Shown one piece after another: positions 10,277 through 47,620 of a DNA stretch of 64,000 nucleotides. Position 1 is the stretch's first letter, and each line of letters opens with the position of its first letter. This stretch comes from Bacteroidota bacterium. GTDB lineage: Bacteria; Bacteroidota; Rhodothermia; Balneolales; Balneolaceae. The position numbers and the translations under genes were made by a program. The DNA is taken from assembly GCA_051746985.1 (NCBI GenBank), contig JBNJFP010000003.1, positions 52,018 through 116,017 on the forward strand, read 5' to 3'. Under the pieces are notes generated by a model. It saw nothing but the letters and a program-made list of their open reading frames with translations, made no database searches and was not told the DNA's origin.

Positions 10277-10924
10277 TTATCCCGATCGAAAAATGAGCCC
10301 CCAGCTATCTCCTTTTTTCCAGGCTTTTCCTACATAGGTGCCGTAAACGGTTACCTGCTCCCACTCATCCGGGGTGATATCAATAGGTTCATAAGAGGGG
10401 TTTTCTGGTTGTAGGGTAATGCCATCGTTCTTTCTGCGGATGGTTTTCAAGGTCGTTTCCCCACGATAGCAGATAGCGCCAATCTCTCCATCGGCGGGTT
10501 CCCGGGGATCAATGATGATATAATCGCCATCGCGGATATCAGCATCTATCATGCTTTCTCCATCAACAATGAGGGCAAAATAGTGGTCGGATTGCTCGGG
10601 ATGAATCTCTACGGGCAGGTGTCCCAGGTTCTCACTAATTGCTTCGTGCATGGCTCCCGCCGCAATACGTCCCTTAACGGGGATACCGGGAAAAAATCCA
10701 GAAAGCTGATTTCTTTTACTGGGATGGATCTCGTACTGCCCCCGCTGAATATTAGACAGGTAGTGCTTTTTTGTGAGGCTCTGCAAATGCTGGTAGATAC
10801 TGTTTGAGGAGCTATATCCAAACTCATTTTGCATATCCTCATACGAGGGAAATTGTTGGTAATCTTCGTAATGGGAGAGAATATACTCCCAAAGTTTTTG
10901 CTGTTTGTCGGTAAGTGATTTCAT
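10277..10924 (-). CDS. lexA: LexA-type S24 repressor
   Basis: N-terminal winged-helix region, Ala-Gly cleavage site (RIAAGAMHEA), catalytic Ser in DGESM and Lys in TLKTIRRK. Confidence 0.85.
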   Translation of the reverse strand: MKSLTDKQQKLWEYILSHYEDYQQFPSYEDMQNEFGYSSSNSIYQHLQSLTKKHYLSNIQRGQYEIHPSKRNQLSGFFPGIPVKGRIAAGAMHEAISENLGHLPVEIHPEQSDHYFALIVDGESMIDADIRDGDYIIIDPREPADGEIGAICYRGETTLKTIRRKNDGITLQPENPSYEPIDITPDEWEQVTVYGTYVGKAWKKGDSWGLIFRSG

Positions 10925-10973: not shown

Positions 10974-11129
10974 TTTTTTATGATGAAAAGAATTGAGCTA
11001 TCTTTTTAAAGAAGAGATTTTACATGACTATTATTGGTTTGTATTCTGGGGTGATATACATCAAACAAAACGCCACCGTATATTATATCGTTATGCAAGG
11101 TGAAAAAATGGAATTAATCCAGAGAACGT

Positions 11130-11549
11130 ATGAATATTGAGATTACCCGGGTAAATGATGCAGTTCACTTTAAAGCACAAAACAACGCCGGTAATACCGT
11201 CCACATAGATGGAGCTGAAGCCGTCGGTGGAGAGGGAAAAGGCATGCGCCCCATGGAACTGATGCTGGTTTCGGTGGCAAGCTGTAGTGCCGTCGATGTG
11301 GTTGAGATATTGAAAAAACAGCGCCAACCGTTAAAAAATATCCAGATTTCGGTCAGCGGTGAACGTCCCGAAAGTGGCGCTCCGCGTCCCTATAAATCTA
11401 TTGATCTGCACTTTACGCTATATGGCAATTTGGAGGAATCCAAAGTAGCGCGGGCAATTAAGCTGGCGGTTGAAGATTACTGTTCGGCGCGGGCTACTTT
11501 GTCGGATGATGTTGAGATAAGCCATAGCTTTGAAATAAAATTCGCTTAA
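11130..11549 (+). CDS. OsmC/Ohr-family peroxiredoxin-like protein
   Basis: 139 aa with the two conserved Cys contexts VASCSAVD and VEDYCSA. Confidence 0.8.
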   Translation: MNIEITRVNDAVHFKAQNNAGNTVHIDGAEAVGGEGKGMRPMELMLVSVASCSAVDVVEILKKQRQPLKNIQISVSGERPESGAPRPYKSIDLHFTLYGNLEESKVARAIKLAVEDYCSARATLSDDVEISHSFEIKFA

Positions 11550-11560
11550 GGAAATAGACT

Positions 11561-12397
11561 ATGAAAATTAATGACGAATTCTGTACGGAATTGATCGAAG
11601 CCCATGAGTCGGCCGATGTTTGTCTGGTGCCTGCCATGGTTGTTAAATGGTTTGAGAAAGTACTGGGATTACTGTTTCCCGAATTTTGTGATCGGACGTT
11701 TGCTGACAGGGATCAAATTATCGCTTATACTGAGGAGTTACGGAGCGAATTGGTGCAGCTCATTGTATGTGAAAATAAAGTGGGTCAGAATGAGGCTGAG
11801 GATATCGCTGATCAATTTTGTGAGACGCTCTCGGTGGTACGGAAAAAGCTGTTGAAAGATGTAGAGGCTATTTTTGAGGGCGATCCGGCGGCCCAAAGTA
11901 AAGGCGAGGTGATACGTACTTATCCCGGATTTTATGCCATGGCAGCTCATCGAATGGCACATCTGCTTTATGAGCGAGAGGTTCCGCTCATCCCCCGAAT
12001 AATCTCTGAGCACGCCCACAGCAAAACAGGCATCGATATTCATCCCGGGGCAAGAATTGGCGAATATTTCTGTATTGATCACGGTACGGGCATTGTGATT
12101 GGAGAAACGACCAAGATTGGAGATCAGGTGAAAATCTACCAGGGGGTCACGCTTGGGGCCATGAGCGTTAAAAAGTCGGATGCATCGAAAAAGCGGCATC
12201 CCACTATTGAAGATGGCGTGGTTATTTATGCCGGCGCCAGTATCCTCGGCGGCGACACCGTTATTGGCAAAAATAGCGTGATTGGCGGCAATGTGTGGCT
12301 GACCGAAAGCGTGCCAACCGAATCCACGATATACTACACTGCAAAAATGAGTCACAATAATGAGGGTGAATCCGATACTATTACTTACAAAACGTAA
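11561..12397 (+). CDS. cysE: serine O-acetyltransferase
   Basis: C-terminal left-handed beta-helix hexapeptide repeats (GIDIHPGARIG, GTGIVIGETTKIGD, GASILGGDTVIG). It is adjacent to the cysteine synthase gene with a 6-nt gap. Confidence 0.8.
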   Translation: MKINDEFCTELIEAHESADVCLVPAMVVKWFEKVLGLLFPEFCDRTFADRDQIIAYTEELRSELVQLIVCENKVGQNEAEDIADQFCETLSVVRKKLLKDVEAIFEGDPAAQSKGEVIRTYPGFYAMAAHRMAHLLYEREVPLIPRIISEHAHSKTGIDIHPGARIGEYFCIDHGTGIVIGETTKIGDQVKIYQGVTLGAMSVKKSDASKKRHPTIEDGVVIYAGASILGGDTVIGKNSVIGGNVWLTESVPTESTIYYTAKMSHNNEGESDTITYKT

Positions 12398-15922: not shown

Positions 15923-16040
15923 ACGGGCGGATTCTCCCTACAACGAAATTCAGGTTATTGCCACAGGATAGCCCTTCAACTCCTCTCACTATTTATGGCG
16001 GTCAGATGATATCATACCCTAAAAAGAAAACGGGTTGCTT

Positions 16041-16526
16041 ATGAAAGAGATAACAACGGAACGAGAATTGTATCTGGAGTTGATTCAGGATATGTATCAT
16101 GCGGAAGTGTTGTTGATTCCGGAATTGCGATTATTTATTGAGAAATCTTCTTCAGAGACGTTAAAGAATCACGTGCAGAACCATCTTAAAAATTCGCGTT
16201 TGCATGTCACCCGGCTGGAAGAAATTCAGGAGAACTTGAATGCGGAATTCATGGAAGAGCATTGCAGAACGATGAAATCGATGATTCTGGAAACCAAAGA
16301 GCTTGTGGAGCGGTGTTCTGGAAATAAACTGACAGATCGGGCTATCGCTGCATCTTTGCACCGTATTACACAATGTCAGATTACGGTATATCAGATGCTG
16401 TTATCGATGGCAGATGAACTGAATTTTCGCGGCCATAAAAAAATATTGCAAGAATTATTAGAGGATGAACAAGTATTTGATCATGTGATGGGTGCAAGCG
16501 GATCGAAACGAAAAGTACAAGCATAA
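16041..16526 (+). CDS. DUF892 (YciE/YciF-like) ferritin-like stress protein
   Basis: About 160-aa helical protein. The N-terminus L..DMYHAE and overall pattern fit the DUF892 family. ATG 16041 is preferred over the TTG at 16035. Confidence 0.65.
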   Translation: MKEITTERELYLELIQDMYHAEVLLIPELRLFIEKSSSETLKNHVQNHLKNSRLHVTRLEEIQENLNAEFMEEHCRTMKSMILETKELVERCSGNKLTDRAIAASLHRITQCQITVYQMLLSMADELNFRGHKKILQELLEDEQVFDHVMGASGSKRKVQA

Positions 16527-16781
16527 CTTGTAAGAAAAAGTTCTACACCTGCATACATAAAGACCTTACGTTACACCAGCAATTAGCATATTATATTAAT
16601 TATAGATTTTAAGAGAGAGTAATTGACATACTGAAATTTACACGCTTTCGGGTTTTGCTACGGCAGTTCTCGAAAGAGACCTAAAAATTACCTGTAGGTT
16701 TCTATTGGGTTATCCGATAGGATTATCGAATAGTGTGTAACAGGGCCATTTGTCGGCATCTGAAAAGTGCCGGCATTCAAA

Positions 16782-16883
16782 GCCAGTGAGTAAGGGTGTC
16801 CTGTTAAAGGGACTGAGATCATACCTTCTGAACTTGAATCGGGTTATGCCGACGAAAGGAACATCACTGGCTTTTTTATTTTT
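16782..16883 (+). ncRNA. TPP riboswitch aptamer (THI element) with P1 directly followed by a U-tract; no downstream ORF
   Basis: GCCAGUGA..GGGUGUCCUGUUAAAGGGACUGAGAUCAUACCUU..ACUUGAAUCGGGUUAUGCCGACGAAAGGAA..UCACUGGC then UUUUUUAUUUUU. The CUGAGA and AUGCC..CGAAAGGAA cores and the P1-P5 pairings are all identifiable by eye. Confidence 0.8.
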
Positions 16884-16891
16884 AATCTCAA

Positions 16892-17644
16892 TTAGTGTAC
16901 CGTATATCCACCGTCAACCGCCAGGGTTTGTCCTGTAATAAAAGAGGCTTTGTCCGAGCAGAGCCAGACGACGGCTTCTGCTACTTCTTCGGGACGGCCA
17001 AACCGCCCCATGGGATGTGCCGCGATGAGGTCTTTGCGTTCTTGGCTATGACTGCCCACAAACCGGTCAATCATTGACGTTTGAATGGCACCCGGACACA
17101 CGGCGTTTACACGGATTCCCTGCTCGGCATATTCCAGGGCTGCTGTTTTCGTAAGTCCGTTAATGCCGTGCTTGCTGGACACGTAGGCCGGGATGCCCGA
17201 AAATCCCAGTAGTCCTGCAACAGAAGAAACGTTAACAATGGCCCCGCCGGAATGTTTAAGCATTTCCGGGATCTGGTATTTTATACAGAGCCAAGTGCCC
17301 CGAAGGTTGATATCCATGACCCGCGACCAGTTTTCGGCAGAGCACTCCGGCGTAAACGCTTGGTCACCTTCAATGCCAGCATTATTGCACGCATAATTCA
17401 GCTGGCCAAAACGGTCGATCGTTCCCTCGATAAGTGATTTAACCTGGCTTTCTTGACTGATATCTACTTCGAGGGCCAACCCTTTTTCTCCCGACTTTTT
17501 AATGAGCTCAAGGGTTTCTTTTGCTGACTCAAGATTTTTGTCAGCGACAACGACAAAAGCCCCGTGCACGGCAAAAAGTTCGGCCGTTGCTCTTCCGATA
17601 CCTGCTCCAGCGCCTGTAACTAACGCTACTTTTCCTTTCATCAT
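16892..17644 (-). CDS. short-chain dehydrogenase/reductase (SDR)
   Basis: TGAGAGIG Rossmann motif, NNAG, and catalytic S...YVSSK. Confidence 0.9.
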   Translation of the reverse strand: MMKGKVALVTGAGAGIGRATAELFAVHGAFVVVADKNLESAKETLELIKKSGEKGLALEVDISQESQVKSLIEGTIDRFGQLNYACNNAGIEGDQAFTPECSAENWSRVMDINLRGTWLCIKYQIPEMLKHSGGAIVNVSSVAGLLGFSGIPAYVSSKHGINGLTKTAALEYAEQGIRVNAVCPGAIQTSMIDRFVGSHSQERKDLIAAHPMGRFGRPEEVAEAVVWLCSDKASFITGQTLAVDGGYTVH

Positions 17645-17724: not shown

Positions 17725-17932
17725 CGCAAAGATAGTGGATTTATGGGCAGATACTTACTTTTGTAACACTACATGATTTATGTCCCTCTTTAGCTAATAG
17801 CTTTGTAAGGTTTTGCTTTACGCACCTGCAAGTAACCTATCTACATCAAATTACACCAACAGAGCATCTCTTTGTTAGTCAGATATGTAGAACTTTACAG
17901 TGTTAATAAACCGCTAATTAAGCAATACAACA

Positions 17933-18391
17933 ATGAAATATTTAATTATGGTATCGCTGCTATTACTCTCATGGGGCAGTCATTCTTCGGTATTTGCCCA
18001 GCAAACCGGTCAGCAACAACAGCAGATGCAGAAACAGATGCAACAGATGATGCAAAATGTGAATGATCTCATGGACCGAACGCAAACCATGAACCAGGAG
18101 ATGAATCGCCGTATGCAGCAAGTCCAAAATGAGGAGATGAAAAACCAGTACCAGATGATGCATCGTTTTAATGAACAGATGCAACTTACCCTGGGTACGA
18201 TGAAAAATGCCGCTGAACGGTGCGACATGATGCAAAAAGATCAAACGATGATGAGGGACCGTGATATGCAGCGCGATATGGATCGCCTTCGCCAAAACCT
18301 GCAGGATATGACGAGTCAGGCTGACGAAGCCGTACAGACCATGGAGCGACTTACCAAGCGCTTGGGTCAGCAGGCAAAGGCTTCAAACTGA
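17933..18391 (+). CDS. secreted Met/Gln-rich coiled-coil protein
   Basis: Signal peptide is present. By my count the mature part has about 21 Met in about 128 residues, in MQxQM-type repeats. Confidence 0.6.
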   Translation: MKYLIMVSLLLLSWGSHSSVFAQQTGQQQQQMQKQMQQMMQNVNDLMDRTQTMNQEMNRRMQQVQNEEMKNQYQMMHRFNEQMQLTLGTMKNAAERCDMMQKDQTMMRDRDMQRDMDRLRQNLQDMTSQADEAVQTMERLTKRLGQQAKASN

Positions 18392-18399
18392 TATAATCA

Positions 18400-19281
18400 G
18401 TGAAAATCGTCCATCTCATATTAAAAATTAATTTAGGTGTTCTGTTGGTATGGCCAGCAGGAGTAGAGCAGTTACAAGCACAAAACCTGTACTACTCCGG
18501 CTCCCTGCAATACGCAACAGGCTCCTACTATTTCACCGAGCGCACTGGCAGCTTCTATTTTAGCAACAGCGTGGGCGTGTCATCAACACGGTGGAGCCTG
18601 TACGTTTCGATGCCGCTTATTTATCAAAACACGCCGTGGATATCTTATTCTAAAACAGGAACAGGTCCGCTTCCCACTGGCGGCCCACAGAGTGGATTGG
18701 TAGATAAGCGCCAACAGCAGGGCAGTGGCAACGGTAGGGGGCAGCGACGGCATACCATAAATCCGGGACCGGCTGATACCGTTAGTTACAGTCAAACTCA
18801 GTTTGGTGATCCTTCTCTATCGGCAAATCTTAAGCTTTGGAACAGCCCGTCCGGACGAAGTATGATCAATGCCAATGGCGGACTCAAGTTTCCCGTCGCT
18901 GATGAGAATTCCGGTTTTGGTACCGGGGCCTGGGATGTAGGAGGAGGGCTAAGCTGGTCGCAGCGTATTCAACAACATTATCTTCTGATGGTAAGCGGGA
19001 TGTATTGGTATCTGGGAGATATGGACGAGCTCGATTTGAATAATTTGCTGAGCTACAGTGCGGCGTTGGGACGTACGTTTTCTGATGGCAAGTTGATGGG
19101 TACGGTATCTTTTATGGGATCCACTGAAATTATTGACGATGTAGATCCACCCGTAAATGTTGGAGCCGGTTTGAATTACCGGCTATCAAATGCAACAAAT
19201 CTTAACACAAATATCTTATTTGGACTAACAGAATCGGCATCAGACTTCAGCATAGGAGTAGGTTGGAGCGTAAATTTTTAA
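18400..19281 (+). CDS. outer-membrane beta-barrel-like protein
   Basis: GTG start 8 nt after the previous stop. Signal peptide, alternating-polarity strands and a C-terminal aromatic residue (GWSVNF) are present. Confidence 0.6.
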   Translation: MKIVHLILKINLGVLLVWPAGVEQLQAQNLYYSGSLQYATGSYYFTERTGSFYFSNSVGVSSTRWSLYVSMPLIYQNTPWISYSKTGTGPLPTGGPQSGLVDKRQQQGSGNGRGQRRHTINPGPADTVSYSQTQFGDPSLSANLKLWNSPSGRSMINANGGLKFPVADENSGFGTGAWDVGGGLSWSQRIQQHYLLMVSGMYWYLGDMDELDLNNLLSYSAALGRTFSDGKLMGTVSFMGSTEIIDDVDPPVNVGAGLNYRLSNATNLNTNILFGLTESASDFSIGVGWSVNF

Positions 19282-19301
19282 CAAAATACTTTGAGGATGA
19301 T

Positions 19302-19754
19302 ATGAAAAGATTATTAATAACTCTTGTTTTAGCAGCTTTGGTGGGTCCACTGTTAACAACGGCATGGGCCCAGCAGCGATCTGGAAAAGGGATGAAAAAG
19401 CAGATGTACGAGCGGGAATATGATATGGATGCGGTCGAGACGATCGAGGGAGAGGTGATTGAGATAACCTACAATCCCGGTCAGAGAAATGCCGCTCGCA
19501 TGGGCGTACACATGATGGTTGCTACGGATGCGGATACCATGTCCGTTCATTTGGGACCGGTTTGGTTTATGGAACAGCAGGAAGAAAAGATTGAGAAAGG
19601 TGACCAGGTTGCGATTACAGGTTCACGTATTACCTATGATGGCTCCCCGGCTCTGATTGCCGCCGAAGTAAAGCGGGAGCAAATGACATTGCGCCTGAGA
19701 GATCGGAATGGATATCCTGTTTGGAGAGGTTGGCGTAAGAGCGGGAATAATTGA
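19302..19754 (+). CDS. periplasmic OB-fold-like protein (MamS/MamX-like domain family)
   Basis: ATG 19302 gives the signal peptide MKRLLITLVLAALVG. The pattern IEGEVIEI..MGVHMMV..VHLGPVWF..GDQVAITGS..LIAAEV..LRLRDRNGYPVW fits that family as I recall it. Confidence 0.55.
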   Translation: MKRLLITLVLAALVGPLLTTAWAQQRSGKGMKKQMYEREYDMDAVETIEGEVIEITYNPGQRNAARMGVHMMVATDADTMSVHLGPVWFMEQQEEKIEKGDQVAITGSRITYDGSPALIAAEVKREQMTLRLRDRNGYPVWRGWRKSGNN

Positions 19755-20001: not shown

Positions 20002-20253
20002 TCATCCACTTTCTGTAGCTGATCTACTCAAAAATTCCTTAATACTTTTTAACGTCCTTAGTTTCCCATAGTCCTCCTCCGGAATTTCAACCTGAAGTTC
20101 CTCGCTGATACCAACCATCATGTTGTAAAAGTCCATAGAGTCAATATCAAGCGTCGGACCTAATTCCTCGTCGGCTTTTAACTGATCAAGATCGGCTTCC
20201 GGGGCAACGCGATGCAGGTGCTTTTTGATGATTGTATCAATGTCGGTGTTCAT
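20002..20253 (-). CDS. acyl carrier protein-like (phosphopantetheine-binding) protein
   Basis: 83-aa acidic four-helix pattern with a Ser attachment context LDIDSMDF. Its start overlaps the E2 stop by 4 nt (ATGA). Confidence 0.7.
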   Translation of the reverse strand: MNTDIDTIIKKHLHRVAPEADLDQLKADEELGPTLDIDSMDFYNMMVGISEELQVEIPEEDYGKLRTLKSIKEFLSRSATESG

Positions 20254-21467
20254 AAATCTTCAGGGTGTTGCAGTTGAGCGTTTAATTTTTCGAGAAATCG
20301 GGATCCCGTATGTCCGTCAGTAGCGCGATGATCTCCGGCCAGTACTACAGAGAGTGTTGGACGAATTCCAATAGAACCATCAACGGCTCGGGTCCGATCG
20401 GTAATTTTCCCAAAGCCAAGTAAAGCTACTTGTGGTGGATAAATAACGCCATACACTTTTTCAGCGCCGCGTTCGCCCAAGCTGGTAATGGTGATTGTGG
20501 CACTGCTAATTTCCCGGCTCTTAAGGTGTCCCTCACGCGCCCGGGTTACCATATCTACAAAATCACTGCGAATTTCATCTAAGGATTTGAGATCAGCATC
20601 CAAAATGGCTGGAATTACCAGTCCGCCTTGACGCAGTGAAACCGCAAAACCTACGTGGATGCCCTCCTCGATATGCATCGCCTCATCCGTCCAGAAGCCA
20701 TTCAGTTCCGGCACTTCGGTCAGCGCATTGGCCACAGCTTTGATCAGCAGCATGGGTGGCAGCAGGCGTTTATCTACCGGTCGGTTTTTATTTTCATCAC
20801 TAAGCCATTCAAGTGCCGCCTTCATGTCAATATCTGTTTCCAGGTAGTAGTGCGGGATTTCTTTATTGGATTTAGACATGGCAGCGGCAATTGATTGACG
20901 CATGCTTTTGCCCTCGGCTTTTGATACATGCTCAGCCATATCCAATTCTTTTTCAAAAGTTTCGTCTGCGGTTTTTTGCTGAGCAAATGCCTCCACATCT
21001 TTGCGATGAATAGTGCCGCCCGATCCGCTGCCTGTTACCTTTTTGAGGTCAATATTTAAATCTTCTGCTACCCGTCTTGCTAAAGGGGATGCCTTTGGTC
21101 GTTGTTTGAGGGTCTCTCTTTTTTCTATTGCCGGCTTCTTGGTTATAACTTCCTGCTCACCTTCGCTCCGAACTTCTTTCTTTTTTTCTTTCGGTGTTTC
21201 AGACGGTTTTACTTCGACTTCTTCGGCTTTTCCTTTGCCATTAATGACGGCCATCACCGAACCAACGGGTACAACTTCCCCTTCTTGAGCCACCAACTCC
21301 GTAATCACGCCATCCTCAAACACTTCGACATCGATCAGACCCTTCTCGGTATCAATTTCCCCGATAATATCTCCTTTTTTTACCGTGTCGCCCGGTTGCA
21401 CGTGCCACTGAATAAGTTTAGCCTCGATCATCTGTGATCCCAGGCTCGGCATGATGAACTTACCCAT
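20250..21467 (-). CDS. 2-oxoacid dehydrogenase E2 (dihydrolipoamide acyltransferase)
   Basis: N-terminal lipoyl domain ([11 protein letters not shown]), a linker, a subunit-binding domain ([15 protein letters not shown]) and a catalytic domain with DHRATDG. ATG 21467 overlaps the E1-beta stop (ATGGGTAA). Confidence 0.9.
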
Positions 21468-22458
21468 GGAGACCTCCCATCTTTTGAATGGATTTAATGA
21501 TTTGTTCGGGTTGTGGCAATGAAGCCTGTTCGAGGTGTTTGGCATAGGGCGCCGGCACTTCCATCCCGCAAATGCGCTCGACCGGTGCATCTAAATCATA
21601 GAACAATTCCTCGGTAATACGGGCACTGAGTTCGGCCGAAATGCCCCCGCTTTTCCATCCTTCATCGACAATAACGGCGCGACCCGTTTTGGTTACGGAT
21701 GCCAAAATCGTTTCACTATCGAGCGGACGCAGCACGCGGAGATCAACCACCTCAGCATCAATATCTTCTTCGGATAATTTTTCGGCCGCTTTGAGTGATT
21801 TCTGGAGGCCGATTCCATACGTCAAAATGCTCACGTCATTTCCTTCGCGACGCACTTTGGCTTTTTGAATATCTACGGCTTGCCCATTGCCGGGCAGCGG
21901 ACCTTCTGAGTTATATAACGTAGAATTTTCGAAAATGAGTACCGGATCGGGGTCTTCCAAAGCTGGCCATAGCATGCCGCGGGCATCTTCGATCGTGGCG
22001 GGCGTTAAAATTTTGAGTCCCGGTATGTGCGCGTACCAACCCTCGAGACTTCGAGAGTGTTGGGCTGCCAGTTGTTTACCACCACCCGTGGCCATCCGAA
22101 TGACAATGGGCACGGTAAACTGTCCGCCAGACATATACTGCAAAATGGCCGCCGTATTGATAATTTGATCCGCTGCCAACAGGCTAAAATTCACGGTCAT
22201 AATTTCTACGATAGGACGCATGCCCGCCACCGCCGCTCCGATGCCGCAGCCGGTAAAGCCCGATTCCGATAGAGGCGTGTCAATGATGCGTTGATCCCCG
22301 AATTCTTCCAACATGCCCTCGCTGACATTGAAGCAGCCTCCGTACAATCCTACGTCTTCGCCCATCAGAAATACGCGGTCGTCTTTTAACATGGCCTCCC
22401 GCATCGCTTCCCGAACGGCTTGACGATAAGTAATAGTTTGTTCTGCAACTTGTGGCAT
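21460..22458 (-). CDS. 2-oxoacid (pyruvate/acetoin-type) dehydrogenase E1 beta subunit
   Basis: 332 aa. The N-terminus [24 protein letters not shown] and the transketolase-like pyrimidine-binding and C-terminal domains are typical. Confidence 0.9.
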
Positions 22459-22461
22459 AAT

Positions 22462-23475
22462 TTATTCTCCTGTAAGGTTGCTGTAAACGTATTTGGTGAT
22501 ATCTTCGATAGGTTCATCCGTCCCATTTTCGGCAAACTGCACCGATGCTTCGACCTCTTCAGTTACCTGCTTATTTAACTGATCCAATTCTTTATCATTT
22601 AATAGACCCTCTTCCTTCAAGTAATCAGCATAAGTTGTAATGGGATCTTTTTTCTTCCACTCTTTTATTTCTTGTTTAGATCGATATCGCTCCGGATCAA
22701 ACATAGAATGTGCCCGGTAACGATAGGTCTGGCACTCCAAAAAATAGGGTTTCTTTTTTTTGCGGATGTGTTTTGTAGCTTTGTCCGAGGCCTTTAATAC
22801 AGCCTTAATGTCCATGCCATCTACGCTATCGGCCTCCATGTTATAGGCTTTTGCTTTCTTCACCAGGTTTGTTTCAGCCTCGGCCAGCTCAAAGGGCATA
22901 CCCATCGAATAGAGGTTGTTTTCACAGACAAAGAGGACTGGCAGATCCCAGAGCGAAGCCAGGTTTAATGACTCGTGGAATTCGCCTTCATCGACCGCAC
23001 CTTCGCCAAAAAAGCAACAGGCCAAGGCATCCTTGTTCTGACGTTTGTAAGCCATAGCGACGCCCACAGCCATTGGCAAACCGTTGCCAACAATCGCCGA
23101 TCCGCCCAAAAAGTTGGTGGCCTTATCATAAAGGTGCATCGAGCCACCGCGTCCCCCACTGCATCCTTCGGCCTTGCCGTATAGCTCTGCCATGATGCTT
23201 TCCATCGACACGCCGCGAATTAGTGCATGTCCATGCTCACGATAAGTGGCTATAACCGCATCTTCTGTTCTGAGATTTTCAATTACGCCTACTGCAACGG
23301 CTTCTTCGCCATCATAGAGGTGTAAAAAGCCACGGATTTTTTCCTGGGTGTAAAACTCATAGGCTTTTTCCTCGAGCTGACGAATACGCATCATCTGTTT
23401 AAGCAGATGCAGATTTTCATCTTTTTCTGTCTTCGACTTCTTTTTTAAAGTCGCACTTTTCTTCTTGGTCGCCAT
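22462..23475 (-). CDS. 2-oxoacid dehydrogenase E1 alpha subunit (TPP-dependent)
   Basis: FLHLYDGEEAV, the TPP-binding GDGA-like region FFGEGAVDEGEFHESLN..NN, and YRYRAHS. ATG 23475 (MATKKK) is chosen because the longer track start would overlap the upstream gene. Confidence 0.9.
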   Translation of the reverse strand: MATKKKSATLKKKSKTEKDENLHLLKQMMRIRQLEEKAYEFYTQEKIRGFLHLYDGEEAVAVGVIENLRTEDAVIATYREHGHALIRGVSMESIMAELYGKAEGCSGGRGGSMHLYDKATNFLGGSAIVGNGLPMAVGVAMAYKRQNKDALACCFFGEGAVDEGEFHESLNLASLWDLPVLFVCENNLYSMGMPFELAEAETNLVKKAKAYNMEADSVDGMDIKAVLKASDKATKHIRKKKKPYFLECQTYRYRAHSMFDPERYRSKQEIKEWKKKDPITTYADYLKEEGLLNDKELDQLNKQVTEEVEASVQFAENGTDEPIEDITKYVYSNLTGE

Positions 23476-23488
23476 AATTTGATCTGTT

Positions 23489-25231
23489 TTAGGATGATGT
23501 TTTTTCAACCTTTTCGCGTTCCTGATCCCGCAGCAATCTCCGCATGATTTTTCCACTACGTGTTTTGGGCAGTTCGTCGATAAATTCGATTTCTTTGGGC
23601 GCTACCGCTGAACCCAATCGCTCGCGGGCAAATCCTTTAAGTTCCAGGTTGAGCTCTTCGCTCGGTTCAAAACGCTCTTTCAATGTGATAAAAGATTTGA
23701 CCAGTTCACCCATCACGGGATCCGGTTTCCCGATTACCGCTGCTTCGGCTACCGCCTCGTGCTCCATCAAAATACTTTCCACCTCGAACGGACCCACCAT
23801 GTGTCCGGCCGTTTTGATGATGTCGTCCGCCCGCCCGACAAACCAGAAATACCCATCTTCATCCCGGCTGGCCAGATCTCCGGTCAGATACCAATCACCT
23901 ACAAAGCATTGCTGGTAGCGCTCCTCGTCATCGAGGTAGCCTCGAAACATTGAGGGCCATCCTTTCTTTAGCGCCAGGTGACCTGATTCACCCGTCTCAG
24001 CAAATTTTATATCGTCTCCTCCGTTCTCATCATAATCTAAAATTTCAGCTTCAACGCCGGGTAGCGGTTTACCCATTGATCCCGGCTTGACCGGCATAGA
24101 GGGATAGTTGGCAATCATGATGCCGCCCGTCTCGGTTTGCCACCAGTTGTCGAGGATCGGCATGTCCAGCATTTTTTGAGCCCATCGCACGGCTTCGGGA
24201 TTCAGCGGTTCGCCCACGCTGTGAATCAGTCGCAGGGCACCTAAATCATATTCTTTGCGAATATCAATATTCATGCGCATTAGTCGTCGAATGGCCGTTG
24301 GAGCTGTGTACCAAATACTGACTTTTTGTTCTTCCAGCGTCTGATACCATAATCGAGCGTCAAACTCCGCTTCGACTACCAGGTTGGTAATGCCATGCAT
24401 TAATGGAGATAATATCCCATACGAAGTTCCGGTCACCCATCCCGGATCGGCGGTGCACCAGAAGATGTCATCGGAGTGGAAATCCAGCACATATTTACCG
24501 GTAATAAAATGGGTTAGCGCTGCTTCGTGGACATGAATCACGCCCTTCGGCATGCCGGTGGTTCCGCTGGTGAAATGCAACAGCGCCCGGTCTTCGGGGG
24601 ACGTTTCAGTAATAACGAAATCAGAGCTGGCCTCCATCATCAATCGCTGGAAAGAGCGCACATTCTCGGATTGGTGATCAGTAATGTCAGTGAGTAATAC
24701 ATATTGTAGATGATCCAAACGATCTAAAAGCCCAGATATCTTTTTATCGAAAAGTGATTTTGTGGTTACTAAAATTTTGGCTTTTCCCTTGCTTAGTCGC
24801 TGGTAAATGGGTTCGGGACCGTAAATTGAAAAAAGCGGACAGTAAATGCTTCCATTTTTCAGGGTGCCCAGTGCTGAAATGTACAACTCGGGAATACGTC
24901 CGGTAAGGGTACAGACGACATCGCCTTTTTGAAGGCCTAAGTTTTGCAAAACATTGGCAAAGCGATTGGTCTGTTCCTTTAGCTCATGATAGGTGAACTC
25001 TTTACTGTTTCCCTGATTCCCAATCCAGTGCAATGCCACTTTCCCTTCTTGGATGTTATCCGCATGACGATCAATCGCCAAGTAGGCCATATTAAATCCC
25101 TTTTTGCCGGAAGATTTTACTAGCTCTTCTTTAACCTGATCCCATCGAAAAGAAGCGTATTCTTTATCGTAGTTACTCATATTAGGATTAGGTCGCCTAA
25201 GAAATTGTTCGGTCAGATCTTTTCGAGACAT
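23489..25231 (-). CDS. AMP-forming acyl-CoA synthetase (AcsA/acetate-CoA ligase-like)
   Basis: AMP-binding motifs LHFTSGTTGMPKG, WQTETGG, YLTGD and KTRSGKIMRR. ATG 25231 is preferred over the TTG at 25276. Confidence 0.85.
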   Translation of the reverse strand: MSRKDLTEQFLRRPNPNMSNYDKEYASFRWDQVKEELVKSSGKKGFNMAYLAIDRHADNIQEGKVALHWIGNQGNSKEFTYHELKEQTNRFANVLQNLGLQKGDVVCTLTGRIPELYISALGTLKNGSIYCPLFSIYGPEPIYQRLSKGKAKILVTTKSLFDKKISGLLDRLDHLQYVLLTDITDHQSENVRSFQRLMMEASSDFVITETSPEDRALLHFTSGTTGMPKGVIHVHEAALTHFITGKYVLDFHSDDIFWCTADPGWVTGTSYGILSPLMHGITNLVVEAEFDARLWYQTLEEQKVSIWYTAPTAIRRLMRMNIDIRKEYDLGALRLIHSVGEPLNPEAVRWAQKMLDMPILDNWWQTETGGIMIANYPSMPVKPGSMGKPLPGVEAEILDYDENGGDDIKFAETGESGHLALKKGWPSMFRGYLDDEERYQQCFVGDWYLTGDLASRDEDGYFWFVGRADDIIKTAGHMVGPFEVESILMEHEAVAEAAVIGKPDPVMGELVKSFITLKERFEPSEELNLELKGFARERLGSAVAPKEIEFIDELPKTRSGKIMRRLLRDQEREKVEKTSS

Positions 25232-25317
25232 TGATTCCCTTTCTATTTGTTGGCTGGATAATTTCAGTATATCCAATAGGTAAAAGGGGCAGGAAAAGGA
25301 TATCTACTGTTTTGCTG

Positions 25318-25332
25318 TAGAAGTATTACCTA
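25318..25332. promoter_or_regulatory. candidate operator, TAGGrA-N3-TyCyTA family (degenerate)
   Basis: cTG TAGAAGTATTACCTA CAAg lies 87-101 nt upstream of the acyl-CoA synthetase ATG. Confidence 0.3.
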
Positions 25333-25404
25333 CAAGGTTTTTGCAATATGATATCTGTGTGAGGACAAATGGGTAACCTTGGAAAGGCAAGCAGCCGAGG
25401 CAGA

Positions 25405-25419
25405 TAGGGTAATGTACTA
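25405..25419. promoter_or_regulatory. candidate operator, TAGGrA-N3-TyCyTA family (degenerate)
   Basis: TAGGGTAATGTACTA CAAG lies 99-113 nt upstream of the cytochrome-porin ATG at 25518. Confidence 0.3.
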
Positions 25420-25517
25420 CAAGCGGGCGGGTAAATACCCATTAATAAAGTGATCAGGGTTACAGCTATTATCCGTTGAGAAATTATTGTTGGAAGAAGA
25501 CTCAATCAGGAGTAGAT

Positions 25518-29344: not shown

Positions 29345-29472
29345 AAAGGCGCTCCTAATTTTTAGGCTTTTGTTAACTTCCGATTTGGGAAATTAGTATA
29401 ACAAGTGGTCAATTGTTGTAATGAATTTCCTTATATCTGAATGCTTGCCTCTTCAAACTGGATAGCTGAATA

Positions 29473-29487
29473 TAGGGAGGATCCTTA
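29473..29487. promoter_or_regulatory. candidate operator, perfect TAGGrA-N3-TyCyTA palindrome
   Basis: TAGGGAGGATCCTTA is intergenic. It is followed by the block ATCCTTACAGGCA-N10-TTCTCTTA, which is shared with the site at 54047-54077. Confidence 0.5.
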
Positions 29488-29860
29488 CAGGCAATTTATC
29501 CTGTTCTCTTACATCAAGTTGTTAGCTCATCATATATAATATCGGCCCTTACTTGATAGCTAACTATATTCATCAAGTGAGACTTGGTTAACAGTTTTCA
29601 ATAAATAAAACGACGTATTCATGGAAGAGTTAGATCCGATATCCCCACAAGAAAAATTAATTTTTAAAGAACATTATCATAGAATTCAATATGCCTTAAA
29701 AAGGATGTCAAGGCGGAGTTATTTAAAAGTTATTACTAACTCATCTAATAGATACCAAGGCAGATATGAAAGATTTCAAGGGATCTACTAAATGTCATCA
29801 AATTGTAATTTCTTGAAATTTTTACGGCATAAATTTGAATAAACAGAATGAGAGTAAAAA

Positions 29861-30253
29861 ATGAAGACTCCAACAATAGAGAGAAATTCCCCTTACAGCG
29901 ATCAGGAACTCGAATATTTCCGAAAAATTATCATCAAAAAACGCAATGAGGCTGCCCAGGAGTTGGAAAGTCTCAAAAGAGCTCTGCAAGAAGAGATGGA
30001 TAATGTAACGACTAAAGTCACTTATTCTTCCCACATGGGCGATATTGGTACAAATACCAGAGAACGGGATAAAATCTATATCTTACACAATCGAACCCGC
30101 AAATTTATTAGCTATCTGGATCGTGCACTTCAACGCATAGACAATAAAGCCTACGGAATTTGCAAGGTTACGGGTAAAAAAATTCCCAAAGGTCGGCTCG
30201 AGGTTGTACCCCATACCCAACTTAGCATCGAGGCCAAAAGAAAACAGCAGTAA
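29861..30253 (+). CDS. TraR/DksA-family protein lacking the C4 zinc finger
   Basis: Coiled-coil N-terminal part. The C-terminus NKAYGICKVTGKKIPKGRLEVVPHTQLSIEAK has only one Cys. It is a paralog of 47219..47620. Confidence 0.75.
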   Translation: MKTPTIERNSPYSDQELEYFRKIIIKKRNEAAQELESLKRALQEEMDNVTTKVTYSSHMGDIGTNTRERDKIYILHNRTRKFISYLDRALQRIDNKAYGICKVTGKKIPKGRLEVVPHTQLSIEAKRKQQ

Positions 30254-32441: not shown

Positions 32442-32510
32442 GTTGCTGTGTTTATGAAGAACTATTTGTTTGGCCTCCTATAAGTTAGGGTGATAATTTC
32501 TTTTTATATG

Positions 32511-32525
32511 TAGGTCATTTGCTTA
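32511..32525. promoter_or_regulatory. candidate operator, TAGGrA-N3-TyCyTA family
   Basis: aTG TAGGTCATTTGCTTA lies 70-84 nt upstream of the USP ATG. Confidence 0.3.
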
Positions 32526-32829
32526 AATATCGTATTTCGAAACGTATGGAAATCTACTGCTGATCCTATTTAGCAAAGAGTGTTACAAGGTAGGTGAAAA
32601 TTCTACATGAGATAGGCAGTAGAGCCCTACAATTTACCAGCCCAATGTTGGTTATAATAGGTATAGAAATTTGACATACTGTTTTTGCACAGTCTCTATG
32701 GGGTGCTACGGCATTTCATGAGATAAACCCAAACTATTCCGCGGGTTTCTTTTTGTGATCTACCCAATTTGGGAAGTGCAAAAAGTGTGCAACGGTATTT
32801 TGTTGGTGCCTTGATCGGTACTGGCAAAC

Positions 32830-32930
32830 AAGCTGACGGTTGAGGGTGTCTCTTAAGTGAGACTGAGATTATACCTCCATAACTTGACCTGGATAATTCC
32901 GGCGAAAGGAAACCGTTAGCTTTTTTTTAT
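32830..32930 (+). ncRNA. TPP riboswitch aptamer (THI element) with a 12-bp P1 directly followed by a U-tract; no downstream ORF
   Basis: AAGCUGACGGUU GAGGGUGUCUCUUAAGUGAGACUGAGAUUAUACCUCC..ACUUGACCUGGAUAAUUCCGGCGAAAGGAA ACCGUUAGCUU then UUUUUUUAU. P3 is GUCUC/GAGAC and the CUGAGA core is present. Confidence 0.8.
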
Positions 32931-33068
32931 TTCTGATCTTTTCGGCCTACCTCTGTATGCAATATTTACGAAGTATGTTTAAACAATACGCGCTGTAAAA
33001 ATTAGGAATAAAGGCTTAAATCCAGTTATTGGATTAGAAGCATTAGAGGAAGGAGTTTTTAGCACAAT

Positions 33069-33109
33069 AAAAAAAGGGAATCACGACTTATTATTTGACG
33101 CAATTCCCC
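33069..33109 (-). terminator. intrinsic terminator of hsp20
   Basis: On the - strand, GGGAAT..N..ATTCCC is followed by TTTTTTT, about 20 nt after the hsp20 stop. Confidence 0.55.
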
Positions 33110-33129
33110 TGTAATTTAGAATGGTTACT

Positions 33130-33585
33130 TTAGTCGATCTTAACAGATTGCCGTTTACTTTTTTCGGCTTTTGGGATATGAACAGTCAGGACCCCGTCTT
33201 TAAATGTCGCCTTGATTTTATCTTCTTTCACACTTGCTGGAAGCGAGAATTTGCGTTCAAATGAACCGAAAGAACGTTCACGTCGAAGATATCCGTTGTG
33301 TTCTTCTTCGGTTTCGTGTTTTCGTTCTCCTTGAATTGAGAGAATATTGTCCTGAACGTTGAGTGTAATGTCTTGTTTTGACATTCCGGGTAGGTCGACT
33401 TCGATCATATATTCGTTGTCGGTTTCCATCATGTCTGTTCGAGGTGCCCAGGATCGCAATCCCATTTCTGAATCATCAAGTCGCCAGCTGAACGGAATTA
33501 GATCATTAAAAATGCGGTCCATTTCGCGACGAAGATTGTTAATGGGTTCCACAGAGGGGCGATCATATTTTGTTAATGGAGTCAT
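33130..33585 (-). CDS. Hsp20/alpha-crystallin small heat-shock protein
   Basis: Alpha-crystallin domain with the C-terminal motif ATFKDGVLTVHIPK. 151 aa. Confidence 0.9.
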   Translation of the reverse strand: MTPLTKYDRPSVEPINNLRREMDRIFNDLIPFSWRLDDSEMGLRSWAPRTDMMETDNEYMIEVDLPGMSKQDITLNVQDNILSIQGERKHETEEEHNGYLRRERSFGSFERKFSLPASVKEDKIKATFKDGVLTVHIPKAEKSKRQSVKID

Positions 33586-33710
33586 AATTTTTGTCTCATT
33601 TATTTTATTGTTACAAATGTTTGTTAACCATCAAGAATCTAAGTGATAAAAGGTTTTATAAGTATGGTATTAGTCACCAGTTAGGCATAGTAAAAAGAAG
33701 GATTGGCCTT

Positions 33711-33725
33711 TAGGAATTCTCCCTA
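33711..33725. promoter_or_regulatory. candidate operator, perfect TAGGrA-N3-TyCyTA palindrome
   Basis: TAGGAATTCTCCCTA lies 126-140 nt upstream of the hsp20 ATG. Confidence 0.5.
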
Positions 33726-33778
33726 CAGTACACTGCTATGAATTTTAAGAGGCCAATTTTTCCTAATAAAATATGAGG

Positions 33779-35506: not shown

Positions 35507-35641
35507 TATTCCATTCGCTCTCTTTAATATTTTTACCTATCAAGAAGAATACGCGAACTTATGGCTTAGAAGTAAAAGGACATCCCTAAAACGACATGTG
35601 GTTAAATGCCTTACAATTGGATTTCAGTGAGTTTTGTAGGC

Positions 35642-39409: not shown

Positions 39410-39455
39410 AATAACTGTATCGATAGGTTATTGATCAATACTTAACTGTTTTTTG

Positions 39456-39470
39456 TAGGAAAAATCCCTA
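39456..39470. promoter_or_regulatory. candidate operator, perfect TAGGrA-N3-TyCyTA palindrome
   Basis: tTG TAGGAAAAATCCCTA lies 98-112 nt upstream of the hemG-like ATG. Confidence 0.5.
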
Positions 39471-39567
39471 TTACAACTGACTCATTTGGCCTTCTGTCCT
39501 GAAGAGAACCGATTGCATAAATTTTTTCAAATAACTTGAAAATTATCACACCACCCAACTACCTACT

Positions 39568-42483: not shown

Positions 42484-42697
42484 AATAAGTTACGTTTTCT
42501 GTATTAAATACGATGAATCACTTAAGTAATTAGTTTTGTGTATTTCGCATTGTAATCATTGCAGTATTAGTTTGTTGTAGTATTATCTCTGAATGTAATT
42601 TCTTTATCATATCGATGGCCTGTGAATTATTTCCCTACAAAAAAAATTCGTAACCGTTTTGTGAACCTGTAGGAATTGAATGAAAAGAAACAACCTC

Positions 42698-46982: not shown

Positions 46983-47076
46983 AATAGTCGTCGTTTTTTA
47001 GAAAAGTACTACTCAGCGCAAATCACTGTTGTACGAACTTCCCGCAGTCCATTTTATAAAATCAACTACGTTACTG

Positions 47077-47091
47077 TAGGGCAATTGCTTA
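47077..47091. promoter_or_regulatory. candidate operator, TAGGrA-N3-TyCyTA family
   Basis: cTG TAGGGCAATTGCTTA CAAg lies in a divergent region, 95-109 nt from the ABC ATPase ATG and 128-142 nt from the dksA-like ATG. Confidence 0.4.
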
Positions 47092-47218
47092 CAAGCCGGG
47101 CTTGATAAAGGCGTCAGTAAATTTATTACAGTAATCTCAGTCGAACTCCTATAGACTTCCTTTCTTATAAATTGATAATTAATACAAACAAGTAGTTGTT
47201 AATAGAATAGTTGATTTT

Positions 47219-47620
47219 ATGTCTGCAGAACAATCCCCAAAAACCCAATTAAGTGACAAAGAGTTGCAATATTTTAAAAACCTGCTCCTCGAAAAACGTG
47301 AAGAAGCCCAGGGGGAACTGGATATCATTCGTGATGCGCAATCCAATTTGGATGATGCCGATGATGCCGATCAATCATCGCAGACGCACCACATGGGTGA
47401 TGTAGGTACCGACGAGCAGGATACTGAAATGAATTACCTGCAAATCGAGCGCTTGCGGGAATATATTATGCATATAAATGAGGCCCTGGAACGTATCGAG
47501 AATAAAACCTACGGTATATGCCAGGCAACCGGCAAGCCTATTGCGAAAGGACGTTTGGAAGCCGTGCCGCATACTCGATACAGCATTGAAGCAAAAAACA
47601 TGGGAATAGCTGAAAATTAA
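47219..47620 (+). CDS. TraR/DksA-family protein lacking the C4 zinc finger (paralog of 29861..30253)
   Basis: SDKELQYFKNLLL.., HHMGDVGTD and the C-terminus NKTYGICQATGKPIAKGRLEAVPHTRYSIEAK. Confidence 0.75.
   Translation: MSAEQSPKTQLSDKELQYFKNLLLEKREEAQGELDIIRDAQSNLDDADDADQSSQTHHMGDVGTDEQDTEMNYLQIERLREYIMHINEALERIENKTYGICQATGKPIAKGRLEAVPHTRYSIEAKNMGIAEN

Follow-up and report, generated by a model that had tools for sequence, protein, structure and literature searches.

Bacterial riboswitches that sense thiamine pyrophosphate (TPP) are known as cis-acting leaders of thiamine synthesis or transport genes, and they constitute the most widespread riboswitch class. In a 64,000-nucleotide (nt) stretch of Balneolaceae DNA (contig JBNJFP010000003.1; hereafter termed the window) we find two homologous RNA elements in which a TPP aptamer follows a conserved, structured 5′ domain, and in which the P1 helix of the aptamer directly abuts a run of uridines. 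Eight distinct instances of this element, representing two paralogue types (five of type 1 and three of type 2), are present in genomes and metagenomes of Aliifodinibius and of the salt-loving soil bacterium Fodinibius (Balneolales). We propose that the element is a stand-alone, TPP-sensing noncoding RNA (ncRNA), and that TPP occupancy of its 3′ aptamer/terminator sets the level of an effector RNA formed by the 5′ domain. We give this reading a probability of roughly 45%. The parts of copy 1 are as follows.

16623-16633, plus strand: invariant 5′ block, UUGACAUACUG, largely unpaired, with an ACUG end that pairs with 16741-16743 as the short helix Pa
16638-16740, plus strand: 5′ domain, a cloverleaf-like four-way junction of Pb, H1, H2 and H3
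16638-16646 with 16732-16740, plus strand: Pb, the closing helix, UUrCAC paired with GUGyAA
16647-16674, plus strand: H1, capped by a UNCG tetraloop (UACG; UUCG in the orthologue at locus L027)
16675-16703, plus strand: H2, with an A-rich loop of 12 nt (12-15 nt across the family)
16704-16731, plus strand: H3, a variable hairpin
16751-16775, plus strand: spacer hairpin H4, UGUCGGCAUCU / AGUGCCGGCA, with no U-tract after it
16782-16871, plus strand: TPP aptamer (RF00059), P1-P5 without P3a; compensatory changes at 4 of 11 P1 pairs
16872-16883, plus strand: U-tract, TTTTTTATTTTT, immediately after P1; presumed site of intrinsic termination and RNA 3′ end

The aptamer at 16782-16871 had been recognized by eye in an earlier note on this DNA, and scoring with cmsearch bears that assignment out. 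An Rfam scan of the 64-kb window returned two RF00059 aptamers and nothing else, one in copy 1 (16782-16877, 61.1 bits) and one in copy 2 (32832-32927, 67.6 bits), against a gathering threshold of 54.3 bits for this family. The threshold is exceeded in seven of the eight instances, with orthologues scoring 61-67 bits. The aptamer core is invariant, including UGAGA after P3, ACC in J3-2, and the P4-P5 pyrophosphate arm ending in CG-AAGGAA. Likewise, neither paralogue type shows any change in the core segments that contact the ligand, namely CUGAGA, ACC, CUUGA and CGAAAGGAA, whereas the helices covary: compensatory changes occur in P1, P2, P3 and P5, and P4 is invariant. An invariant core surrounded by covarying helices points to selection for ligand binding, and not for a mere hairpin. 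Score, core and covariation all place the aptamer in RF00059, and it is predicted to bind TPP. Some RF00059-like RNAs have been reported to prefer thiamine or thiamine monophosphate (PMC9481103).

In copy 1, P1 is formed by GCCAGTGA (16782-16789) and TCACTGGC (16864-16871), giving a G+C-rich helix of 8 base pairs (bp) that A-U pairs lengthen to 11-13 bp (16779-16791 with 16861-16874). The helix of 8 bp and the U-tract at its foot had been described before, and their exact sequence is confirmed at 16782-16883. Straight after P1, with no spacer, come 5-8 U residues in eight of eight instances, and a G+C-rich stem with an immediate U-tract, as in intrinsic terminators, is thus present in all of them. 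A consensus scan of both strands near copy 1 and copy 2 found no other hairpin terminator, so P1 is the sole stem abutting the U-tracts.

The earlier note had gone further, proposing that ligand-stabilized closure of the aptamer itself forms the terminator. This part of the model finds no thermodynamic support, because P1 is predicted to pair already without ligand. We used partition-function folding with no ligand term, applied also to transcripts truncated before the P1 3′ strand. The P1 pairs adjoining the U-tract have a mean pairing probability of 0.92-0.99, and the helix comprises 8-10 contiguous pairs with a duplex ΔG of -12.6 to -14.2 kcal/mol. For the aptamer of copy 1 the ligand-free probability is 0.93-0.99. 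In truncated transcripts the P1 5′ strand is free or weakly paired, its partners differ between homologues, and no conserved anti-terminator was found among the homologues folded. The formation of P1 without ligand and the lack of an anti-terminator suggest that termination is largely constitutive, and in these models it is probably the default. P1 is far longer than a switch needs. It is possible that TPP at most tunes the efficiency of termination kinetically, the junction being pre-organized, or that it acts after termination.

The second copy had been placed at 32671-32930 on the basis of sequence blocks at matching offsets, and both exact search and alignment support this. The two copies are alignable over their full length, including the approximately 150 nt that lie 5′ of the aptamer. 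Exact matches to TTGACATACTG occur in the window at 16623 and 32671 only, GCTACGGCA comes after an identical 23-nt gap in both copies, and GGTTTCT and AGTGTG(T/C)AAC also align. Copy 2 spans 32671-32932 and, with its upstream region, is organized as follows.

32589-32658, plus strand: promoter-like region with palindrome GGTAGGTGAAAATTCTACA (32589-32607), AGAGCCCTAC box and -10-like TATAAT (32653-32658); kept in orthologues L017 and L018
32671-32828, plus strand: 5′ part, with the 5′ block at 32671-32681, the four-way-junction domain (Pa, Pb, H1-H3) at 32676-32798 and H4 at 32799-32828
32830-32932, plus strand: TPP aptamer and U-tract, with P1 of 10-12 bp (32830-32841 with 32911-32922; duplex ΔG -14.2 kcal/mol) and the U-tract at 32921-32932

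The order of parts, read 5′ to 3′, is common to the family: the 5′ block, the cloverleaf-like domain, H4, a TPP aptamer with a long P1, and the U-run. Independent minimum free energy folds give the same architecture in six of the seven original sequences, and the remaining one, L017, adopts it within 0.5 kcal/mol once one helix is enforced. Fold z-scores for the two window copies are -4.6 and -6.6. The 5′ block is exact in seven of eight instances, with L017 carrying UUGAUUUACUG.

Covariation was scored over 59 pairs on a MAFFT alignment that had not been fitted to the structure. Standard pairs occupy 95.1% of pair cells, as compared with 42-47% after a shift of the 3′ partners by 1-3 columns, and two-sided (compensatory) changes are seen at 19 of the 59 pairs versus 0-6 after such shifts. 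None of 500 shuffles matched the observed pairing and covariation values. Compensatory changes affect 8 of 11 pairs in H1 and 2 of 5 in H2, in addition to those in P1 given above, and H4 (9 pairs, 98% of cells paired) shows one-sided variation at five pairs and two-sided variation at one. Pb is off by one column in the MAFFT alignment; it exchanges A-U for G-C between the types, and G·U for G-C in L027. Because the eight sequences derive from a few closely related lineages, fewer independent events lie behind the compensatory cells than their counts imply. Many of the pairs are G·U, and the structure is thus specific to the plus strand.

Neither strand carries a conserved open reading frame (ORF), and a small protein encoded on the minus strand was rejected because the ORFs there are non-homologous and their frames are not conserved. 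The 5′ domain and upstream halves of both copies match no Rfam family at E ≤ 10. As judged from sequence comparison, the 5′ domain of approximately 120 nt is a new structured RNA motif. Two other pairings within it were considered. The outer stem proposed by RNAalifold (ACAUACU with AGUGUGU) shows no covariation and is disrupted by a U-to-C change in L027, and Pb was adopted instead. Pairing of the H2 loop (CCUG/CCG) with the 3′ strand of Pa as a pseudoknot would involve 3-5 possible pairs, which are inconsistent among homologues, and it is not claimed here.

Conservation does not begin with the RNA block, as the earlier note had it, but runs about 95 nt further 5′, starting at a palindrome. 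The corresponding features of copy 1 are listed here.

16529-16547, no strand assigned: palindrome TGTAAGAAAAAGTTCTACA, consensus TGTAGG-N7-CCTACA, operator-like, about 76-94 nt 5′ of the RNA block
16561-16597, plus strand: putative promoter, with a AGACCTTAC box (16561-16569) and a -10-like TATATT (16592-16597)

The palindrome occupies the same relative position in all eight instances, and one series recurs in both types and all species: the palindrome, 13 nt, AGACCyTAC, about 22 nt, and TTATAwT. A promoter consensus scan of copy 1 gives GTTACA-16-TATATT. Between the -10-like box and the invariant block (TTGACATACTG/UUGACAUACUG) the two types differ by a 13-nt indel, while the geometry further 5′ is fixed. 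This combination suggests that the box is a -10 element and that the invariant block lies inside the RNA, with the promoter itself inferred from conservation. For copy 2, an own promoter is required because the upstream gene is divergent. Two other promoter assignments were discarded. TTGACA as the -35 element of a downstream promoter lacks a suitably spaced -10 box in every copy, and a Bacteroidetes-type -7 box (TAnnTTTG) lying over the block matches type 1 poorly and is argued against by the 13-nt indel.

The window is enriched in this palindrome: 26 near-matches were counted where 8.6 are expected, and none of 100 shuffles reached 26. The near-matches are mostly intergenic and lie 5′ of both RNA copies and of genes for Usp, Hsp20, COX1, a flavodoxin, Pyr_redox_2, a DksA-like protein, cytochrome c and the AMP-binding/E1 proteins.

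25316-25334, no strand assigned: perfect palindrome in the upstream region of the AMP-binding/E1 operon
17827-17845, no strand assigned: palindrome (near-match scan) in the intergenic region between the cassette and the convergent gene that follow copy 1
25403-25421, 29471-29489, 32509-32527, 33709-33727, 35597-35615, 39454-39472, 42621-42639 and 47075-47093, no strand assigned: further palindrome sites (near-match scan)

From its distribution, the palindrome looks like the operator of an uncharacterized stress or redox regulon, and its recurrence suggests that both RNAs are part of such a regulon. Two paralogous DksA/TraR-type zinc-finger genes (29861-30253 and 47219-47620) each have a palindrome upstream, and a third DksA/TraR homologue adjoins the Usp-MgtC operon in L014, L016 and L017. 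A LexA-like repressor gene (Peptidase_S24 plus LexA DNA-binding domain; 10277-10924, minus strand) adjoins OsmC, hexapeptide-transferase and pyridoxal phosphate-enzyme genes and is unrelated.

Homologues were collected by scanning for the two invariant blocks, matched exactly, across one genome per species and then across metagenome contigs; more diverged relatives would escape such a scan, since both exact blocks were required. The genome scan gave two true matches, in metagenome-assembled genomes (MAGs) of Fodinibius and Aliifodinibius, both of which match copy 1 in block spacing, presence of a TPP aptamer and convergent gene, and the metagenome scan gave two more instances. The true matches (L002, L005, L010 and L011) all have the 23-nt gap. 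Eight remaining pattern matches were set aside; their gaps differ, and they either have no TPP aptamer or were not examined further. A degenerate pattern produced three matches in viral contigs, which have the wrong spacing and were judged to be chance. An nhmmer profile of the 5′ domain found nothing beyond the known instances in all collected sequence.

Further orthologues were reached through neighbouring genes. L018 and L017 are diverged copy-2 orthologues located via Usp orthologues that are 84% and 71% identical and share the Hsp20-gap-Usp gene order, with a truncated gene at the contig end occupying the Hsp20 position in L018. L027, a copy-1 orthologue, was located via an orthologue (85% identical) of the convergent short-chain dehydrogenase/reductase (SDR) gene described below. 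No copy-2 orthologue was found beside Usp in F. roseus, F. sediminis, A. salicampi or L016, and no copy-1 orthologue beside the SDR gene in L019-L023. The element is missing at the corresponding positions of Fodinibius sp. SL11, F. roseus, F. sediminis, F. salsisoli, A. salicampi and several MAGs. A literature search found no paper connecting riboswitches with the Fodinibius clade.

Some of these loci show signs of recent change. In L027, a metagenome contig, no gene is called in about 800 nt of the region 5′ of the element (11046-11860), which also holds a 38-amino-acid (aa) GIY-YIG fragment; this may be a mobile-element or homing-endonuclease remnant and could bear on spread or loss of the RNA gene. 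In the window only, a gene for DUF892 (a YciE/YciF-like stress protein; 16035-16526) lies between an MMPL gene and copy 1. In L002 and L005 the element directly follows MMPL, and the DUF892 gene may be a recent insertion.

The features of a classical riboswitch are absent: in eight of eight instances there is no same-strand downstream gene, and there are no mutually exclusive terminator/anti-terminator structures and none that would sequester a ribosome-binding site. The earlier note had argued that the element is not a classical cis leader, and would have taken a conserved plus-strand gene directly downstream in orthologous loci as evidence to the contrary. No such gene exists, the next gene being convergent in all eight instances. 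The argument is further strengthened by conservation of the approximately 265-nt unit with compensatory changes and by the shared promoter-like region.

As we envisage it, each copy would be an independent gene, transcribed from its own regulon promoter into a structured ncRNA of about 265-290 nt. Transcription would end at P1 and the U-tract largely irrespective of ligand, and, because termination would be largely ligand-independent, every mature RNA would terminate in a folded TPP aptamer. Binding of TPP could then act on the carrier RNA by compacting the three-way junction, such that more transcripts terminate and/or the 3′ end is shielded from exonucleases. In this way TPP would set the level of an RNA whose effector part, the conserved 5′ domain together with the single-stranded UUGACAUACUG, might bind some mRNA or protein. 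A minority of read-through transcripts would be antisense to the convergent gene. Short-RNA and antisense outputs are not mutually exclusive, and would be compatible if the short and read-through forms differ in role.

Several observations weigh against this proposal. Duplex scans of the 5′ block and H2 loops against the start regions of 51 window genes gave values of -11 to -16.5 kcal/mol, which are at noise level, and among these 51 genes there is no trans target common to both copies. We infer from sequence that the RNA is expressed, and where its 5′ and 3′ ends lie. The tight tail-to-tail linkage with the SDR gene is unexplained by a purely trans-acting role. The L027 aptamer scores 48.2 bits and is sub-threshold. 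In addition, P1 does not enclose the simple 3-8-nt loop of an ordinary terminator; the "loop" is a three-way junction of 75-80 nt, and the consensus scan does not call it. Finally, the family is narrow and patchy, and confined to one genus.

The SDR linkage also forms the basis for the best-surviving alternative, in which the element is a TPP-gated cis-antisense controller. Under this model, transcription would stop at P1 and the U-tract when TPP is ample and, when TPP is scarce, would proceed antisense to the SDR gene and ancestrally to a whole gene cluster. A TPP-dependent pathway would thereby be repressed whenever its cofactor is lacking, a check on cofactor availability. We regard this as doubtful, albeit with real merits. 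The genes that surround the two copies are as follows.

16892-17644, minus strand: SDR gene (FabG / glucose-1-dehydrogenase-like), convergent with copy 1; Pfam adh_short_C2, E = 1e-70
17933-19754, plus strand: three-gene cassette (p152, outer-membrane barrel p293, p163)
20250-25276, minus strand: operon of AMP-binding, E1alpha (E1_dh, TPP-dependent), E1beta and E2 genes (Pfam), with a perfect palindrome upstream
33130-33585, minus strand: Hsp20 gene, convergent, 3′ of copy 2; Pfam HSP20

The earlier note had the convergent SDR gene at 16892-17644 next to copy 1 with no plus-strand ORF directly downstream, and this is correct, though plus-strand genes resume at 17933. Its statement that no thiamine biosynthesis or transport gene is present in the window agrees with the Pfam annotation. 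It had missed, on the minus strand, genes for a TPP-dependent 2-oxoacid dehydrogenase E1 (22462-23556 and 21460-22458), whose cluster lies 3 kb from the SDR gene. In L021, L022 and L027, the SDR gene directly follows AMP-binding, E1alpha, E1beta, E2 and acyl carrier protein-like genes on the same strand, which indicates that SDR was ancestrally the last gene of the cluster. In the window, the cluster (20002-25276, minus strand) is parted from the SDR gene by the inserted, oppositely oriented three-gene cassette. The cluster couples the TPP-dependent 2-oxoacid dehydrogenase with acyl-carrier and FabG-like parts, and its first gene is acyl-CoA-synthetase-like.

The antisense model draws on the fact that the SDR gene is convergent with the element in five of five type-1 loci, 8 to about 45 nt from the U-tract, despite rearrangement of the outer flanks on both sides. 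In L027 the element, with no cassette nearby, lies opposite the 3′ end of an intact E1-SDR cluster. In the window the SDR gene has no terminator of its own and its stop codon is 8 nt from the copy 1 U-tract, so its 3′ untranslated region must run antisense into the aptamer. Precedents exist in AspocR, which responds to vitamin B12 (PMC8079631), and in the S-adenosylmethionine (SAM)-responsive S-box antisense RNA of Clostridium acetobutylicum (PMC2258182).

Against these points, P1 is predicted to form ligand-free with no conserved anti-terminator, and hence no switch is visible. The SDR enzyme does not itself depend on TPP. Read-through in the window, L002 and L005 would span the SDR gene alone before continuing in the sense direction into the unrelated cassette. 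The conserved 150-nt 5′ domain would be left unexplained by a simple antisense switch, and most genomes with the SDR/E1 cluster lack the element. Type 2 poses a further difficulty, as it is always located between a divergent Usp-MgtC operon and a convergent Hsp20 gene. Copy 2 faces Hsp20, COX1 and ZIP, which have no link to TPP, and the terminator hairpin of Hsp20 itself (about 33065-33125) sits between Hsp20 and copy 2, as it does in L017. The antisense controller suggested in the earlier note has a rationale in the membership of SDR in a cluster with a TPP-dependent E1, but does not fit the Hsp20/COX1 neighbours of copy 2. The Hsp20 terminator (window 33065-33125; L017 705-750) is a hairpin between an A-run and a U-run and is potentially bidirectional; it would also halt read-through from copy 2.

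A second alternative assigns the aptamer a structural role only. Its fold would serve as a stable, possibly bidirectional, terminator or 3′ cap for the ncRNA and the SDR mRNA, and TPP would have no regulatory effect. The long, in silico ligand-independent P1 is consistent with this idea, as is the position of the SDR stop codon with no other terminator at hand: Fodinibius sp. SL11, which lacks the element, has a small hairpin and U-run of its own after the SDR gene (L019 10750-10830). L027 moreover tolerates a sub-threshold aptamer. We nonetheless consider a purely structural role improbable, because the ligand-contacting core is invariant in both types while the helices covary, and because the minus-strand image of P1 is followed by three U residues only, making it a poor terminator.

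It is far less probable still that the element is a long-range leader, or part of an excludon, governing the cassette at 17933-19754 through 1 kb of read-through that is also antisense to the SDR gene. Five loci (the window, L002, L005, L010 and L011) carry the cassette on the strand of the element, with the cluster on one side and the SDR gene on the other; the five element-free SDR loci and the other SDR loci examined lack it. This initially strict co-occurrence, which had made the cassette a candidate for the regulated operon, is broken by L027, where the element is present and the cassette is not; this locus largely refutes the idea. The cassette has its own upstream region with the palindrome at 17827-17845, its proteins look suited to envelope or metal handling and not to thiamine, and there is no plus-strand gene for 3.7 kb beyond copy 2. 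The protein p152 (152 aa) is secreted, extremely rich in Met and Gln, and has no Pfam match, p293 (293 aa) is a Phenol_MetA_deg-type outer-membrane barrel, and p163 (163 aa) is MamS/MamX-like; the cassette is possibly an envelope metal-handling system.

Equally hard to credit is an orphaned pseudo-riboswitch, a decaying relic of a classical leader left by rearrangement, a fate raised for orphan aptamers by Barrick and Breaker (PMC2258182) and compatible with the patchy distribution and the one weakened aptamer (L027), since aptamer, long P1, U-tract, 5′ domain and promoter-like region are kept in both paralogues and their orthologues with 19 compensated pairs, no homologue is followed by a gene on its own strand, and the fact that the entire unit was duplicated together with its promoter speaks for a functional gene.

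The stand-alone TPP-sensing ncRNA has its closest counterpart in the Vc2 cyclic di-GMP riboswitch of Vibrio cholerae, where the aptamer forms the 3′ terminus of upstream small RNAs (sRNAs) and a role in their stability has been proposed (Pursley & Waters, bioRxiv 10.1101/617340). In both systems a ligand-binding aptamer is the 3′ end of an ncRNA, as predicted here from sequence, and a compact, bound aptamer is proposed to set RNA abundance. Vc2, however, precedes tfoY, and the 3′ ends of its sRNAs are reported not to arise from termination. The Fodinibius RNA, in contrast, has no downstream gene, a U-tract that abuts P1, TPP as its presumed ligand, and a conserved, structured 5′ domain.

Other riboswitch-containing RNAs share fewer of these features. 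AspocR (B12, Listeria) and the SAM-I element opposite the ubiG operon of C. acetobutylicum (PMC8079631; PMC2258182) resemble type 1, with its putative promoter, in having a promoter of their own and an aptamer downstream of and opposite other genes. In the known systems those genes depend on the sensed cofactor; for type 1 the candidate is the SDR/E1 cluster, most clearly in L027. Those RNAs, however, use an ordinary terminator/anti-terminator, and their long antisense transcript starts with the aptamer, whereas the Fodinibius aptamer comes after a 150-nt structured domain, P1 is its sole terminator stem, and copy 2 faces TPP-unrelated genes. EutX/Rli55 (B12) and SreA/SreB (SAM) likewise place a metabolite aptamer in an RNA that acts beyond the downstream ORF (PMC8079631). 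In EutX/Rli55 the aptamer lies 5′ of an ANTAR effector and decides its transcription, and SreA is the terminated leader of a real operon. The Fodinibius effector candidate, conversely, lies 5′ of the aptamer and would always be transcribed first.

In the hydroxymethylpyrimidine pyrophosphate (HMP-PP; thiS motif) riboswitch (PMC6478431), aptamer and intrinsic terminator are also merged, and sensing is also thiamine-related. There, a tiny aptamer lies inside the terminator stem, ligand disrupts termination (an ON switch), and thiS is regulated; in Fodinibius, the P1 terminator stem encloses a full-size TPP aptamer and no gene follows. With the classical RF00059/THI element the Fodinibius RNA has in common the aptamer sequence, fold and ligand-contacting core. 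It differs in that it is not in a 5′ untranslated region, has no thiamine gene or expression platform, has a P1 two to three times the usual length, and carries an extra 5′ domain.

A broader interpretation would hold that a TPP aptamer has been recruited outside thiamine metabolism into a stress-regulon ncRNA, where it would serve as both 3′ sensor and terminator and signal how much cofactor is available. Such an RNA would control the TPP-dependent 2-oxoacid dehydrogenase cluster and stress genes, in trans by means of the new cloverleaf-like 5′ domain and/or as cis-antisense, and its termination would be tuned directly as ligand folds the aptamer that makes up the "loop" of the terminator hairpin. 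In this full form the interpretation is tentative and, in our judgement, unlikely. If its ligand-tuned termination were true, the expression platform would be reduced to P1 plus a U-tract, and a cofactor check might couple TPP supply to a TPP-dependent enzyme cluster. The distribution in one genus limits the present weight of these findings. Barrick and Breaker (PMC2258182) drew attention to a handful of orphan aptamers, which perhaps regulate trans-acting RNAs or are pseudo-regulatory, and our comparative data supply evidence, at the level of sequence conservation, that at least one orphan aptamer is a conserved gene. As a naturally occurring case of P1 serving as terminator stem, the element could reveal whether ligand-induced junction folding alone tunes termination or 3′-end stability. 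An intact TPP aptamer selected to end a stand-alone RNA would add the most widespread riboswitch class, and the little-studied Balneolota, to the riboswitch-containing regulatory RNAs represented by EutX/Rli55, AspocR, SreA and the Vc2 sRNA.

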